A stretch of 64,000 bases of DNA from a virus, in IMG/VR virus record IMGVR_UViG_3300020183_000020, positions 1 to 64,000 of that record; one strand, 5' to 3'. Made by a program: the position numbers and the translations under genes. The notes below the pieces were generated by a model, which had not been told where the DNA came from, did not search any database, and saw nothing but the letters and a program-made list of their open reading frames with translations. Position 1 is the stretch's first letter. Each line of letters starts with the position of its first letter. This document shows positions 8,897-56,081 of this stretch, piece by piece.

Positions 8897-9988
8897 TCAT
8901 GACTTCGGGTTTAATTTCTCAAAAAGTTTAAGAGCTTTCTGTTTGAACCCAATCTGAGGTTCAATCCTGATTACATAGTTATGATATCTCGTCCCATCTG
9001 TATCCTCATCGTGCCATAGTTTCTTAAATACCCCTATAGGGAGCCTCACCAACTTTCTCCTAGAGGGATCGGACAAAATAATATGTCCATCTTTTATGTC
9101 TTTTACTATGCAGTAGTGACCCTCAGACCAAGTTTCTTCCCAATTTCTTTTGGCTTCCCGATCCCACATTTGCATAGAAACTATAGAATAGACCCCATCC
9201 GAAATCGCATCCTTTAAGTCTGATATGCCCTGCTCAGACATATCTACCTCACACCCAAGTCTCTTGAAGAAATACATTATATTCGGGAGCGGAGTACCCT
9301 CCTCAGGGTTTGTGCCAATAGCCTGTCGGACTTCCTTCTCAGAAACCCAAACCCCTTCAGTATTTAAGATTGCTGTTACACAAGCAGCCCCACACGAATA
9401 TTTGGTCTCCTGTATCCGATGTTGGATACTCATACCTGCCCCGTTAAGCCGTCTTAAAACTTCAGAGGCTGATCTGTTCATAGACCTAAACTCCTCTTCA
9501 GAACACTCAGCCGTGGAATAGTTATCAGGTACAGCGTGGGGGATACCAACGCCTCCATTCATTTCTATGTGCTGCATAAAGGAAGAAAGGTGGTGGTGTC
9601 TGTCTTCCCACATATGAACAATAGCGTTCGGGAATTTAGACATGAGATCATCTATAACTCTTTTCTTAAAAGACTCCGTTCCACCCATGTCTTTCAAGAT
9701 GACATCATCGAACTTCAAACCTTTTTTGCGTAAGAGTCCTTCGACAACCTTTTGGAGGTGCTTTCTTCGACCCGTACAGACAACGGCATATACATCCTTA
9801 GATGCTATGCTTTTCCTAGCCTCCTCTACAACAGACTTTACCCATTGCTCCCCTTTAGGTAGACAAATCTCACCGAGGCTTAATGGGTTTTGGTGCCATT
9901 CACCATCTCTATCATTGTCATACCACGCGGGTGCTTTGGGTGATCTAAACAAGGTAGCATCAAAGTCATATATGTGAATTTGATTCAC
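8897..9988 (-). CDS. Swiss-army-knife-type HAD phosphatase fused to a C39 peptidase
   Basis: IHIYDFDATLFRSP..CTGR..MWEDR, then QETKYSCGAAC..GHY..DP; likely GTG start at 9988. Confidence 0.8.
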   Translation of the reverse strand: MNQIHIYDFDATLFRSPKAPAWYDNDRDGEWHQNPLSLGEICLPKGEQWVKSVVEEARKSIASKDVYAVVCTGRRKHLQKVVEGLLRKKGLKFDDVILKDMGGTESFKKRVIDDLMSKFPNAIVHMWEDRHHHLSSFMQHIEMNGGVGIPHAVPDNYSTAECSEEEFRSMNRSASEVLRRLNGAGMSIQHRIQETKYSCGAACVTAILNTEGVWVSEKEVRQAIGTNPEEGTPLPNIMYFFKRLGCEVDMSEQGISDLKDAISDGVYSIVSMQMWDREAKRNWEETWSEGHYCIVKDIKDGHIILSDPSRRKLVRLPIGVFKKLWHDEDTDGTRYHNYVIRIEPQIGFKQKALKLFEKLNPKS

Positions 9989-9989
9989 T

Positions 9990-10556
9990 TCACAGACCTT
10001 CCCGATTAAGGTGAGTAGATGCGATACGGCTCGCCATGATTTGTCTTCCATCAGGGGAAACCTCTCGCTCTATTTTGAGGGCGGGTCTACGCACGAGGTA
10101 GTTTGGCCATTTTTCAAACCACTTTGAGTAGAAGTCATCTTCGTTAACTTCTCGGGTGGTTTTGTCGGGGTTGGGGATATTAGGGTCTGCCACATGGACG
10201 ACATAATTTCCCTTTTCGCCCGTCACATCGAATATGAGGCTTGCATGGCTCCATTCGCGACCTTCAGGGTTCCATGCGATTAAAACGGGAAACCCTGCGT
10301 CCGTCCATTCCTTAACCTGAGTAAGGGTAGAGGGAGTGGTGAGTGTAGCCCTACACCCGAAGTATTGAGCACAAGCCAATACTTCTTCCCAACGAGCCCC
10401 TTGCATAGGCTTCGCCCCGATGACTTCATTTACTTCATCTTCTGTGCATTTAACACCAACGGCATTGAGAGCCATACAGGTGCTAGTAGCGACACAAGAG
10501 AATTGTGTTCTCTGCCTTATAGCGGAGATATTTGCCTTAGCTTGAATGCGTCTCAC
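9990..10556 (-). CDS. C39-like cysteine peptidase
   Basis: RQRTQFSCVAT..WSHASL..ADPN. Confidence 0.8.
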   Translation of the reverse strand: MRRIQAKANISAIRQRTQFSCVATSTCMALNAVGVKCTEDEVNEVIGAKPMQGARWEEVLACAQYFGCRATLTTPSTLTQVKEWTDAGFPVLIAWNPEGREWSHASLIFDVTGEKGNYVVHVADPNIPNPDKTTREVNEDDFYSKWFEKWPNYLVRRPALKIEREVSPDGRQIMASRIASTHLNREGL

Positions 10557-13524: not shown

Positions 13525-13950
13525 TTAGTGATACTGAACACCAAATGTCGGACACACATCTCTAATATCGAAACCCAAATCTTTTGGGTTTTCGTTCTTT
13601 TTAAAGTCTTTTAGGTCGTACCTGTACGATTCTACAGTTCCCTCGCCTATATTCTTATGTATAACTATAATAATGTTCTCAGACCATTCTTTTCCGTCTT
13701 CCGTGACTACTGCAACTAGTAAAAACCCTGCTCCTTTATTGAGATGGGGTCTAACAACATCCCCCCATTCAGGCAGTTGAACCTTTATTTCTTCGGGTGA
13801 GTTGAACATAAACCCCTTCTCCCCCCCCTCTTCTATACGGACGCTTTGAAGTAGAAACAAGAACGGAGGCATATCCTCAATTGGAGGGGCATCAGGCCCT
13901 AGAACTATTTCTCTCAAACACTCAAGTATTTCTTTATTGGTTGGGTTCAT
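13525..13950 (-). CDS. Hypothetical protein
   Basis: AGGAG RBS. Confidence 0.75.
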   Translation of the reverse strand: MNPTNKEILECLREIVLGPDAPPIEDMPPFLFLLQSVRIEEGGEKGFMFNSPEEIKVQLPEWGDVVRPHLNKGAGFLLVAVVTEDGKEWSENIIIVIHKNIGEGTVESYRYDLKDFKKNENPKDLGFDIRDVCPTFGVQYH

Positions 13951-13991
13951 TAAATGTCTCCTTTATTACTTTTATTAAATGTCCCCTCTAG

Positions 13992-14075
13992 TACCTAGAG
14001 CGGGACTCGAACCCGCAAGACTTTTAGGTCGGGGGATTTTAAGTCCCCTGTGTCTACCTATTCCACCATCTAGGC
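13992..14075 (-). tRNA. tRNA-Leu(UAA)
   Basis: Cloverleaf with long variable arm; loop CTTAAAA; no CCA. Confidence 0.95.
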
Positions 14076-14168
14076 TTATGTTCCCCCCCACTATACCGAA
14101 GTCCCATCAACTCTTAAAACTAAGGGGAAGTAAATCAGCCTACTCGGCTGACCACATCCCCATCTAAG

Positions 14169-14241
14169 TGGGTCCTCTGGGGCTCGAACCCAGGACCTAC
14201 GGATTAAAAGTCCGCTGCTCTACCGACTGAGCTAAGAACCC
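14169..14241 (-). tRNA. tRNA-Lys(UUU)
   Basis: Loop CTTTTAA; upstream TTGCTT-N17-TATAAG. Confidence 0.95.
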
Positions 14242-14303
14242 TTAGTGATCCTTCTTATACCGACTGACTTTGGAGGAAGCAAGAAAAAAACGCCTTCTAA
14301 GTA

Positions 14304-14644
14304 ATAAAGTGACCCCCACTAATCGACCGAAGAGGATCGGTGGGGGTCACTTGAGGGTGAAGCTATGCCCTCGGTCTATCTGAGTCAACATGGAGCCTCG
14401 TGGTCAACTATAACATATTGCCTTATCGTCTAACCTACAGAGATTGAGGGTTCAGACTTCCCACAGTCTGTAGGACTATCTATCCTTGGTTGACCTTCCA
14501 CAATATATTTCAGGGCTAGTTAAAGCGGTGAGCTTTTGTGGGATAGATAGTATCGAAAAGACTCACGCCTGAGCTAGTAGCCCTCAGGCGAGGTACAAAC
14601 CTGCTACTAGGTTTAAGAAGCCTCCGTGCGGAGGACATTCTTAA
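14304..14644 (-). ncRNA. Candidate ~340-nt multi-pseudoknot RNA ending in a terminator-like hairpin
   Basis: No ORF; many helices and loop-loop pairings; directly follows tRNA-Thr. Confidence 0.7.
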
Positions 14645-14717
<73 letters not shown>

Positions 14718-14729
14718 TTATGTGTTAAG

Positions 14730-14803
14730 TACGCCCGACAGGATTTGAACCTGTGACCCCCTCTTTAGGAAAGAGGTGCTCTATCCAACTGAGCTACGAG
14801 CGT
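14730..14803 (-). tRNA. tRNA-Arg(CCU)
   Basis: Loop TTCCTAA; cloverleaf. Confidence 0.95.
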
Positions 14804-14855
14804 TCATGTCTTTCTATATATAGGAGGACGGCATAAAACGCAAGGGGAAAATTTA

Positions 14856-15323
14856 ATGGCGTATGTACGGAGACCTTGGACTGATGAAGACATCAAGCTA
14901 CTAAGAGCTATGGCTCAGTATTTACCTGCAACACTCATAGCGGAAAGACTAAATCGAGGGCTAAGTTCCATAAAGTTTAAACTATCCAATTTGGGTATCC
15001 GTTTGAGAGATCGCGGTTGGGTCTGCCAAGGTAGCCCACGACATTGGACACCTAAAGAAATATCCATTTTGAAGAGGCACGCAGGTAAGTTAACTTCTTT
15101 GGAGTTACAGAAGCACTTGCCCCAAAGATCAAGTAAGTCCATCAAGATTAAAGCTAGTGCTTTAGGGCTTACGCTTTTCAAGACCCCTTGGTCTTCCGAA
15201 GATTTGGATAATCTTCTCTCCCTTAGAGAACAGGGTAAGTCTTTTGTCGAAATAGCTAAGGTCTTCAAGAGAAGTCCAGAGGCTTGCAGGGCGAAGTACT
15301 CATACTTGACCAAGTTTGACTAA
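14856..15323 (+). CDS. Myb/SANT-like HTH repeat protein
   Basis: Three repeats: WTDED, WTPKE, WSSED. Confidence 0.75.
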   Translation: MAYVRRPWTDEDIKLLRAMAQYLPATLIAERLNRGLSSIKFKLSNLGIRLRDRGWVCQGSPRHWTPKEISILKRHAGKLTSLELQKHLPQRSSKSIKIKASALGLTLFKTPWSSEDLDNLLSLREQGKSFVEIAKVFKRSPEACRAKYSYLTKFD

Positions 15324-25534: not shown

Positions 25535-25965
25535 ATCTCCACACTTATACCAAATTTAAATTCTCTTTCAATCTTTTTCAGGTTATCCGAACTACAAATC
25601 CGAATCCTTTGGGGGTTTTATTGACTTGGAGAATAAAACCCCAAGGGAGAGTGCAGGTGAACGATCTATTTTGGGTTTGGTGGTGCGATAGACTTTGGGA
25701 TAACCTAATCGTTTCGGACGAGGCTCGGTTTAAAGAAGCCCTTAATAAAGGCATTCTGCCGCTTATTGAAGACAAAGTATTTAAGATACTAAGCGAGTGT
25801 AGCGGAAACCACACTTGGAGAGCCGAGAGAGTCCTACAGAGGGCATCAGCTATTCATAATGATCCATATAGAGCCTGTGATCTGCTGTCTGCGATCTTAG
25901 ACCTCTCTTGTGATAGGGCGTTTATAGCTGAATTCCACAATGATATATATCGAGAGGATCAAATC

Positions 25966-54998: not shown

Positions 54999-55098
54999 TT
55001 GTCTGTTTCTCCGTCGTTCGGTTGTGGGGGCTTTAACAACTAGTCAGTATAGTCTGAACACTCATAGGTCTTTCGTTCGGGTTCTCATTTCTTATGAA

Positions 55099-55172
55099 TG
55101 GGCAATCTGGGGCTTGAACCCAGGACCGACCGTTTATGAGACGGGTGCTCTAACCAACTGAGCTAAATGCCC
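55099..55172 (-). tRNA. tRNA-CAU (Ile2 or elongator Met)
   Basis: Loop CTCATAA; paired 1:72, so not an initiator. Confidence 0.9.
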
Positions 55173-55178
55173 TTAGAT

Positions 55179-55267
55179 TCAATGTCCCATCTGACTGTGC
55201 CGCTTCTATACGGCTGCCACCAGATTGTACGATTTAAGCTGAGGTTCACGACCGTAGAGAACATTGA
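55179..55267 (-). ncRNA. Candidate 89-nt three-way-junction RNA between tRNAs
   Basis: UCAAUGUUC/GGACAUUGA closing stem plus two internal stems. Confidence 0.45.
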
Positions 55268-55268
55268 G

Positions 55269-55342
<74 letters not shown>

Positions 55343-55390
55343 TTATATGAACACTATACCACGCCGACGGGGGCGTTATAACATTTCAAA

Positions 55391-55472
55391 TGCCCAAGGT
55401 CGGACTTGAACCGACACTCCCGAAGGAAACGGATTTTGAATCCGCCGCGTCTACCAATTCCACCACTCGGGC
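55391..55472 (-). tRNA. tRNA-Leu(CAA)
   Basis: Loop TTCAAAA; long variable arm. Confidence 0.95.
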
Positions 55473-55569
55473 TAATGTCCCCATCCGTTGATGGGGAGGG
55501 GAGGTTTGAACCGCTGTTCTCCTACACTAGTATAGAAACCTGACTAGGACTTCAAGGAAAAAAGAAGCA

Positions 55570-55959
55570 TCAGCCCCATTTTAACAGAAAAGGTTTTTTA
55601 TCCTTGGGGTGTAGAGGATATCTCAGAACATCTGAGATAGGAACCCACTTCCAATCCATGTGTTCGTCATTGATGGTGGGCGTAAACTTTACATCTACTT
55701 CGGCTAGATAGAGCGTGTACCCACTACAGTAGATTTCGTCATAGATTTGATACGGCACCCCGCTGCCAATAAGTTGCCGTTCTTCATCTCCTCCTAGCTC
55801 TTCATATGTTTCTCTGAGAGCTGTGGTGTAGTGATCTTCGCCTTCTTCAGTCTTCCCCCCTGGGAAGTTCCATGTACCGCCCCACTTGTCGTGTGGAGAT
55901 AAGACCCTCTTTAGGATAAGCGTATCACTTCCACATATGAACATAACTCCTGCACCCAT
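55570..55959 (-). CDS. NUDIX hydrolase
   Basis: GGKTEEGEDHYTTALRETYEELG Nudix box. Confidence 0.92.
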   Translation of the reverse strand: MGAGVMFICGSDTLILKRVLSPHDKWGGTWNFPGGKTEEGEDHYTTALRETYEELGGDEERQLIGSGVPYQIYDEIYCSGYTLYLAEVDVKFTPTINDEHMDWKWVPISDVLRYPLHPKDKKPFLLKWG

Positions 55960-56081
55960 ACTAGTTCTCCTTCTTATGGTGTCGATTAGGTCTAGGTTTT
56001 ACCAAGTGGGCTGAGTTTTCTTATTTCTTTTATACTAGTTGCATATGTCGGTCAAAAAACCGACCCTATGGAGTCACAATC

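Follow-up and report, generated by a model that had tools for sequence, protein, structure and literature searches.

The spacer between tRNA-Thr(UGU) and tRNA-Lys(UUU) in a jumbo phage probably holds the gene for a stable and compact non-coding RNA of ~300-340 nt, hereafter called X, of a family not yet catalogued, and it appears likely to very likely that X is a functional structured RNA. Comparison with a homologue in a related phage showed that compensatory changes have preserved the predicted helices H1, H3, P4, P5, P6 and P7, as well as the loop-loop pair of the 5' domain and one or more long-range pseudoknots. An earlier note, made from the letters of this DNA, had spoken of a possibly new RNA class. 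The absence of an Rfam family and the existence of a covarying homologue support this suggestion, in the sense that X is an uncatalogued family (with respect to Rfam 15) within a known kind, the structured RNAs of phage tRNA islands.

The window, i.e., the whole stretch of 64,000 nt that was analysed, corresponds to the initial 64 kb of an IMG/VR virus record of 110 kb (G000) judged 35% complete; since 110 kb make up only 35% of the genome, the source is a jumbo phage. DNA of this phage was present in 20 lake-water metagenome runs. Eight tRNA genes were found in the window by ARAGORN, and its proteins mostly fall outside known families, the recognisable ones being a DNA polymerase of family-A type, an M15 endolysin and a NUDIX hydrolase. 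X occupies the 403-nt spacer that follows tRNA-Thr(UGU) (Table 1). Its placement on the minus strand directly after tRNA-Thr, as the earlier note had it, agrees with the ARAGORN coordinates, which leave 0 nt between the two (1-2 nt in the homologue). CCA is encoded neither by tRNA-Thr(UGU) nor by tRNA-Arg(CCU). X is devoid of coding potential: the claim that it contains no ORF must be amended for one frame of 40 codons (14516-14638), the sole one present, but this frame has no counterpart in the homologue. The downstream neighbour, ORF141, matched no Pfam or PHROG family, and its AlphaFold model was poor (pLDDT 53.7). As a separate observation, the acceptor stem of tRNA-Thr(UGU) carries a non-Watson-Crick 4:69 combination (C-C here and in L017, C-U in the related phage G001), a mismatch kept in three phages (14645-14717 in the window; L011 1772-1845; L017 8479-8551), one of which is without X. 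Another concerns a 384-aa protein encoded ~4.5 kb from the tRNA cluster (8897-10051, minus strand), which combines a HAD 'Swiss Army Knife' RNA-repair domain (PF10307) with a C39 peptidase domain.

Table 1. Features of the X locus, in window coordinates unless L011 is named; the RNA position p equals 14645 minus the window coordinate.
Feature	Coordinates	RNA position p	Strand	Remarks
tRNA-Arg(CCU)	14729-14803		minus	ARAGORN, Rfam tRNA
tRNA-Thr(UGU)	14645-14717		minus	ARAGORN, Rfam tRNA; 11 nt from tRNA-Arg(CCU)
X, whole	14296-14644		minus	begins with the base that follows the discriminator of tRNA-Thr; includes the terminal hairpin and its U-rich tail
X, conserved core	14350-14644		minus	295 nt; ~340 nt with the terminator hairpin
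H1	14638-44/14613-19	1-7/26-32	minus	7 bp + inner 5 bp; homologue 7 bp, 1 compensatory pair
H2	14609-12/14599-602	33-36/43-46	minus	weak, several alternative registers
Kissing pair, H2 loop/H3 loop	14603-10/14574-81	35-42/64-71	minus	recurs in homologue
H3	14583-90/14566-73	55-62/72-79	minus	8 bp; 5 of 8 pairs changed on both sides
P4	14554-60/14421-28	85-91/217-224	minus	CUUUUCG/CGAUAAGG; closes a three-way junction holding P5 and P6
P5	14541-51/14475-85	94-104/160-170	minus	11 bp; homologue 8 bp, 1 compensatory and 1 G.U change
PK-D (candidate)	14537-43/14459-65		minus	UCCCACA (P5 top)/UGUGGGA (P6 apical part); repeat finder
PK-B, long-range pseudoknot	14489-95/14402-08	150-156/237-243	minus	GGUCAAC/GUUGACC; P5 interior to P4-P7 linker
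P6	14467-74/14434-41	171-178/204-211	minus	8 bp; 6 of 8 pairs changed on both sides
P7	14394-99/14359-64	246-251/281-286	minus	6 bp; 2 compensatory pairs and a conserved G.U
Terminal hairpin	14307-14352	295-337	minus	13 bp, G+C-rich, then UUUAUUACUU; -29.5 kcal/mol, z -5.2
-10-like box GGTATAAG	14254-14261		minus	upstream of tRNA-Lys(UUU), behind X
tRNA-Lys(UUU)	14168-14241		minus	ARAGORN; next unit of the conserved cassette, putatively with a promoter of its own
tRNA-Leu(UAA)	13991-14075		minus	same tRNA cluster
Other -10-like boxes, window	25544-25552; ~55352-55360		minus
Other -10-like boxes, L011	~1422-1430; ~1860-1868

On the minus strand, X folds with a minimum free energy of -123.3 kcal/mol (z = -4.1 against dinucleotide shuffles). 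The fold of the plus strand is no less stable (z = -4.8), and folding energy therefore does not pick the strand. The minus strand was assigned because of the orientation of the tRNAs, the G.U pairs and the U-rich tail; G.U pairs that fit the minus strand only number two here and four in the homologue.

The homologue lies in G001, a phage of 290 kb (93% complete) that was found through its DNA polymerase, 87% identical to that of the window. The two copies of X are ~60% identical and the fold is kept. A covariance model built from the X of the window alone matched the G001 RNA over its full length with 66.8 bits (E 5e-16), versus 33.1 bits for a sequence-only model from the same alignment. In the alignment of the two RNAs, for which a structure obtained from only one of them served as template, 97.3% of the cells of 58 nested pairs were paired, and all 13 helices were confirmed base by base in both RNAs. 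Covariation in homologues, which the earlier note had named as a check on its proposal, was present: 17 pairs had changed on both sides (six in P6, five in H3, two each in H2 and P7, one each in H1 and P5), versus 0-2 in six slid controls and 8.5 +/- 2.1 in column shuffles. All of these covariation figures come from one pairwise comparison, because only two distinct members of the family were found.

The surroundings of X are partly shared as well. The cassette of tRNA-Thr, X, hairpin, promoter-like box and tRNA-Lys is common to both jumbo phages, the order in G001 being tRNA-Thr(UGU), ~330 nt, a hairpin with a U8 tail, a TGGTATAAG box and tRNA-Lys(UUU). The Arg(CCU) cluster of G001 that is syntenic with ours is without X, which stands 40 kb away. 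Downstream genes are held in common, namely ORF141 and its counterpart ORF133 (42% identical) and the M15 endolysin (88% identical). The upstream neighbour in G001 is a NUDIX gene; the corresponding gene of the window (55579-55959) precedes a second tRNA cluster at 55.6 kb. Since the downstream genes are common and the NUDIX gene is displaced, the X loci of the two phages are orthologous at the 3' side, and rearrangement has taken place at the tRNA clusters, which look like recombination points. Read along the locus, the gene order in G001 (L032) is NUDIX, tRNA-Thr, X, tRNA-Lys, ORF133 and endolysin; in the window, ORF141 and the endolysin follow the first cluster (13525-15000) and the NUDIX gene heads the second (55000-56000).

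Most of the hairpins and long-range pairings drawn in the earlier note were recovered by a repeat finder and have support in the homologue. This holds for the hairpin at 14613-14644 (H1), which locks the 5' end of X, for the one at 14566-14590 (H3), and for the stems P6 and PK-B; the 13-bp terminal hairpin was likewise recovered, and the homologue has a hairpin at the same place. The hairpin at 14597-14614 (H2) is present with 4-6 bp, but its support in the homologue is weak. Regarding the hairpin at 14528-14566, the perfect 11-nt complement of its loop stands and constitutes P5, whereas the hairpin itself (GUGAG/CUCAC) finds no counterpart in the homologue. The crossing helix 14412-20/14501-09 can be formed in this phage (9 bp, one of them G.U) but not at a corresponding place in G001. 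To these elements the present analysis adds P4, P7, PK-D and three invariant unpaired or junction blocks, i.e., AGACGAUAAGG, GACUCAGAUAGAC and the CUGAA loop.

In the 5' domain, the loops of H2 and H3 carry complementary sequences (CTAGTAGC/GCTACTAG), and the kissing pair that had been proposed from them was found both by the repeat finder and through a matched change in the homologue: AGUAGC/GCUACU here corresponds to GUAAGC/GCUUAC in G001, with the matched insertion of an A-U pair. In shuffled sequences such a pairing arose at a frequency of 0.0004 for the window and 0.012 for G001, and in both together in 0 of 5000. The three-way junction that follows is closed by P4, whose CGAUAAGG strand lies within the invariant block AGACGAUAAGG (14421-31). 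The sequence of P4 is identical in both phages despite the divergence of the neighbouring helices, and a U that is bulged here is replaced by an extra A-U pair in G001. When DNA contigs from four lake-water runs were compared, the sole SNP of X in the population (14425 A>C, plus strand; one contig of one run) fell on this bulged U, X being otherwise identical.

The interior of P5 is variable and its fold ambiguous; it contains a small apical hairpin and the 5' strand of PK-B. The latter reads UGUGUC/GACACA in the homologue, with the GUC/GAC core in common (joint shuffles 0.0012). P6 is prolonged by an apical extension, UGUGGG/CCCUCA, with the loop A-R-G-U-(U)-CUGAA, of which the loop and GGG/CCC are invariant. 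PK-D has its equivalent at the same places in G001, CCCAA/UUGGG, with a matched one-pair indel, and gave 0.0004 in joint shuffles before correction for the ~10 pairings inspected. It can form neither together with the P6 apical extension nor together with the top of P5. The partner strand of the P6 apical extension has changed in the same way as that of PK-D; a conformational switch between PK-D and the P6 apex is possible. The loop of P7 measures 29 nt and carries the invariant GACUCAGAUAGAC (14374-86), a motif whose exact form occurs once in the window. A candidate match between the P6 and P7 loops, UCUGA/UCAGA, is invariant in both RNAs. Three tertiary candidates lack support: PK-C (GAGGG 14368-72/CCCUC 14353-57) was not significant in shuffles (0.06), the homologue has beside PK-B a tetraloop-receptor-like UAUGG/CUAAG that this phage does not share, and complements of the H3 loop at 14512-18 fall at non-homologous places in the two phages. 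At the 3' end, the hairpin of the homologue has 9 bp and its U8 begins 5 nt after the stem. A consensus scanner called neither terminal hairpin as an intrinsic terminator, and they are not textbook terminators; it is nevertheless plausible that the hairpin with UUUAUUACUU acts both as intrinsic terminator and as 3'-end lock.

Known RNA families were searched with the 4227 models of Rfam 15, at gathering scores and then at E<=10 with relaxed filters, on both copies of X. At gathering scores only the tRNAs were matched and nothing on X, and at E<=10 no match overlapped the core, in the window (14350-14644) or in the homologue; two sub-threshold chance matches on the opposite strand touched the terminal hairpin only. 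Neither ROOL nor GOLLD gave a covariance-model match to either copy at E<=10, and the same was true of bacterial RNase P RNA. A tmRNA was rejected: ARAGORN found no tRNA-like or tmRNA gene in the stretch, in agreement with the earlier note that a tRNA-like domain is absent, Rfam gave no match, the 3' end is a plain G+C hairpin, no ORF is common to both copies, and SmpB (PF01668) was found neither in G000 nor in the 93%-complete G001 by a search whose control was positive in 10 genomes. For a group I intron there was no Rfam match, and X stands between two complete tRNA genes. By eye only, GGGAAGUC resembles CR-I of RNase P, the homologue reading GGGAGGUUC, and GAUAGUCC and GACUCAGAUAGAC resemble the S and R elements of group I introns; these resemblances were discounted because they are not kept in the homologue. 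The sole match to Y RNA/YrlA (23.2 bits against a gathering score of 69) lay on the tRNAs and not on X, and a search for TROVE (Ro/Rsr) genes, with positive controls, returned none in this fragment or in G001. Retron msr/msd, group II introns and TnpB/IscB guide RNAs were set aside, PF00078 and PF07282 being absent from both phage records, as was a Type III antitoxin of ToxI type, no tandem repeat being present in 13900-14900. No 3-bp YGAD hairpin with conserved spacer, as in coremin-type mini-pseudoknots (PMC6546385), was seen by eye in X.

The family is small. No match to X was obtained in the phage GenBank collection (blastn in distant mode). Searches of IMG/VR viral contigs with motif pairs, the 3' end of tRNA-Thr, neighbour proteins and the P7-loop motif recovered nothing beyond the G001 phage (twice) and chance matches, which the covariance model rejected. 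Apart from an identical copy of the window (L019), a scan of JGI metagenomes returned just two chance matches; GTDB prokaryote genomes yielded 11 chance matches, all rejected. X is single-copy per genome. Covariance models did not find it in a set of seven related phage records that included a 100%-complete one; it is absent from the phages whose polymerase is 63% identical, of which one is complete, and is therefore dispensable for the lineage. A third relative phage probably exists, as suggested by P0001, a homologue of ORF141 (85% identical) encoded on a 29-kb contig.

Regarding expression, a (T)GGTATAAG or TGGTATAGT box occurs 8-16 nt upstream of tRNA-Lys, tRNA-Val and tRNA-Arg(UCU) in the window, and the same box upstream of tRNA-Thr and tRNA-Lys in G001; it probably serves the tRNA units as promoter. 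From such a promoter, X would thus be transcribed along with tRNA-Arg and tRNA-Thr in this phage, and along with no tRNA other than tRNA-Thr in G001. Its 5' end would be made by the host tRNA 3'-end endonuclease, cutting behind the CCA-less tRNA, and its 3' end would be set by the terminal G+C hairpin, both ends being held in helices as in stable RNAs. We propose that X acts in trans, the invariant single-stranded blocks forming a working face that would most likely bind a protein or an RNA of the tRNA/translation sphere during infection, like other tRNA-island RNAs.

Other readings of the same data deserve consideration. X could be a self-assembling 'ornate' RNA, whose loop-loop pair would operate in trans to build dimers, rings or cages, or a pseudoknotted ribozyme. 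Like ROOL and GOLLD, it stands beside phage tRNAs, and it combines a covarying kissing pair, several pseudoknots and invariant unpaired blocks with one strand that can pair in either of two conserved ways, as PK-D or as the P6 apical extension. Pairings B4 of ROOL and B7 of GOLLD, first assigned as tertiary by covariation, proved to be intermolecular in cryo-EM (bioRxiv 10.1101/2024.12.08.627333). X is however at most half the size of ROOL, there is no homology, an intramolecular kiss is sterically possible with the 12-15 nt that link the partners (sequence being unable to tell cis from trans), and no cleavage-site signature or known ribozyme motif was found in X, which makes this reading quite unlikely. 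If it is widened to a new class of ornate RNA, i.e., a small cousin of ROOL and GOLLD that self-assembles via a trans loop-loop pair, possibly tethered to tRNA-Thr, or else a ribozyme or switch, we regard it as unlikely; the switch form has in its favour that U(G)UGGG has two partners, at the P5 top and the P6 apex, both kept by matched changes. The locus could also be a cis-acting trailer that serves to process or delay tRNA-Thr, to stabilise the precursor or to insulate the two units, or that forms a domain tethered to tRNA-Thr: X abuts tRNA-Thr and H1 begins at once and could stack on the acceptor stem, X ends in a hairpin before a new promoter-like box, and the order tRNA-Thr, X, tRNA-Lys is conserved. 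Yet an RNA of 300 nt that combines long-range pseudoknots, a three-way junction and three invariant unpaired blocks goes far beyond the requirements of termination or processing. In another phage, nothing more than a short hairpin and a terminator comes after a nearly identical tRNA-Thr, and other tRNAs in both phages do without X. A trailer function is accordingly improbable.

Descent from a known family, as a very diverged fragment of GOLLD or ROOL, an mRNA domain of tmRNA type, a group I intron shell, RNase P RNA or Y RNA, would fit the niche shared with GOLLD and ROOL, the richness in pseudoknots that recalls tmRNA and the short resemblances seen by eye. We consider it very improbable in view of the lack of any match to the core of either copy in the Rfam search, the absence of a tRNA-like domain and a tag frame, and the absence of SmpB, Ro/TROVE, reverse transcriptase and TnpB-type genes from the fragment and the 93%-complete relative. 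It is still harder to credit that X is a non-functional spacer or decaying sequence with fortuitous hairpins. Such a reading could call upon its occurrence in two closely related phages only, its absence from their cousins and the equally good folding of the plus strand, but double changes at 17 pairs keep the pairing and unpaired blocks of 11-13 nt are invariant, where neutral decay predicts the opposite.

As a stable trans-acting RNA, which is the reading we prefer, X can be set beside several known systems. ROOL and GOLLD, two large pseudoknotted RNAs of unknown function, are encoded by phages and prophages, in many cases close to tRNA islands (PMC5737381; bioRxiv 10.1101/2024.12.08.627333), and both assemble into cages via kissing loops (bioRxiv 10.1101/2024.12.08.627333). 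X shares with them the non-coding nature, a multi-junction fold, pseudoknots, kissing loops and a place beside phage tRNAs. Unlike them, it has ~300 nt, versus ~580 for ROOL and >800 nt for GOLLD, no Rfam match, other conserved motifs and two members versus hundreds. [quoted passage not shown] X resembles these as a non-tRNA RNA within a phage tRNA cluster, presumably freed by tRNA processing, and belongs with them by position and strand, which is a functional grouping and not a homology family. RNAC and RNAD measure ~120-140 nt; X, compared with them by description only, is much larger and has long-range pseudoknots. Its size, its pseudoknots and its link to tRNA also recall tmRNA (SsrA), which has ~300-400 nt and several pseudoknots and is sometimes phage-encoded, but X lacks a tRNA-like domain, an Rfam match and a conserved tag frame, and neither phage has SmpB. 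A survey of IMG/VR has listed 10,006 candidate structured RNAs (PMC10690425).

For the time being, the value of X is limited by its tiny family, its uncultured host and an expression that is so far a prediction. It nevertheless offers a further and compact example, ~300 nt long, with a clear transcription context, which is tractable for in vitro structure work, and the structural hypotheses it raises (the kissing pair, PK-B, and PK-D versus the P6 apex) are amenable to test. Large multi-pseudoknot RNAs with invariant unpaired blocks are rare in bacteria and phages, the known ones being ribozymes, riboswitch-like sensors or self-assembling cages. Such RNAs turn up repeatedly in phage tRNA islands (GOLLD, ROOL, T4 RNAC/RNAD), and we know of no function for any of them; X may help to ask what tRNA-island RNAs do for large phages.

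Finally, a second conserved small RNA of ~90-115 nt was observed in tRNA spacers, at 55173-55267 of the window (minus strand) and at 5267-5383 of L002 (minus strand). It sits between tRNA-Arg(UCU) and tRNA-Met here and between tRNA-Asn and tRNA-Leu(UAA) in the related phage, and had no Rfam match at gathering scores. The two copies have in common the blocks CUCUACGGU, CUUAAAUC.GUAC.AUCUGGUGGCA and ACAGUCAGAUGG, as well as an AUCUG/CAGAU stem with a covarying inner stem, GCCG/CGGC versus UUGCAAG/CUUGCAG.
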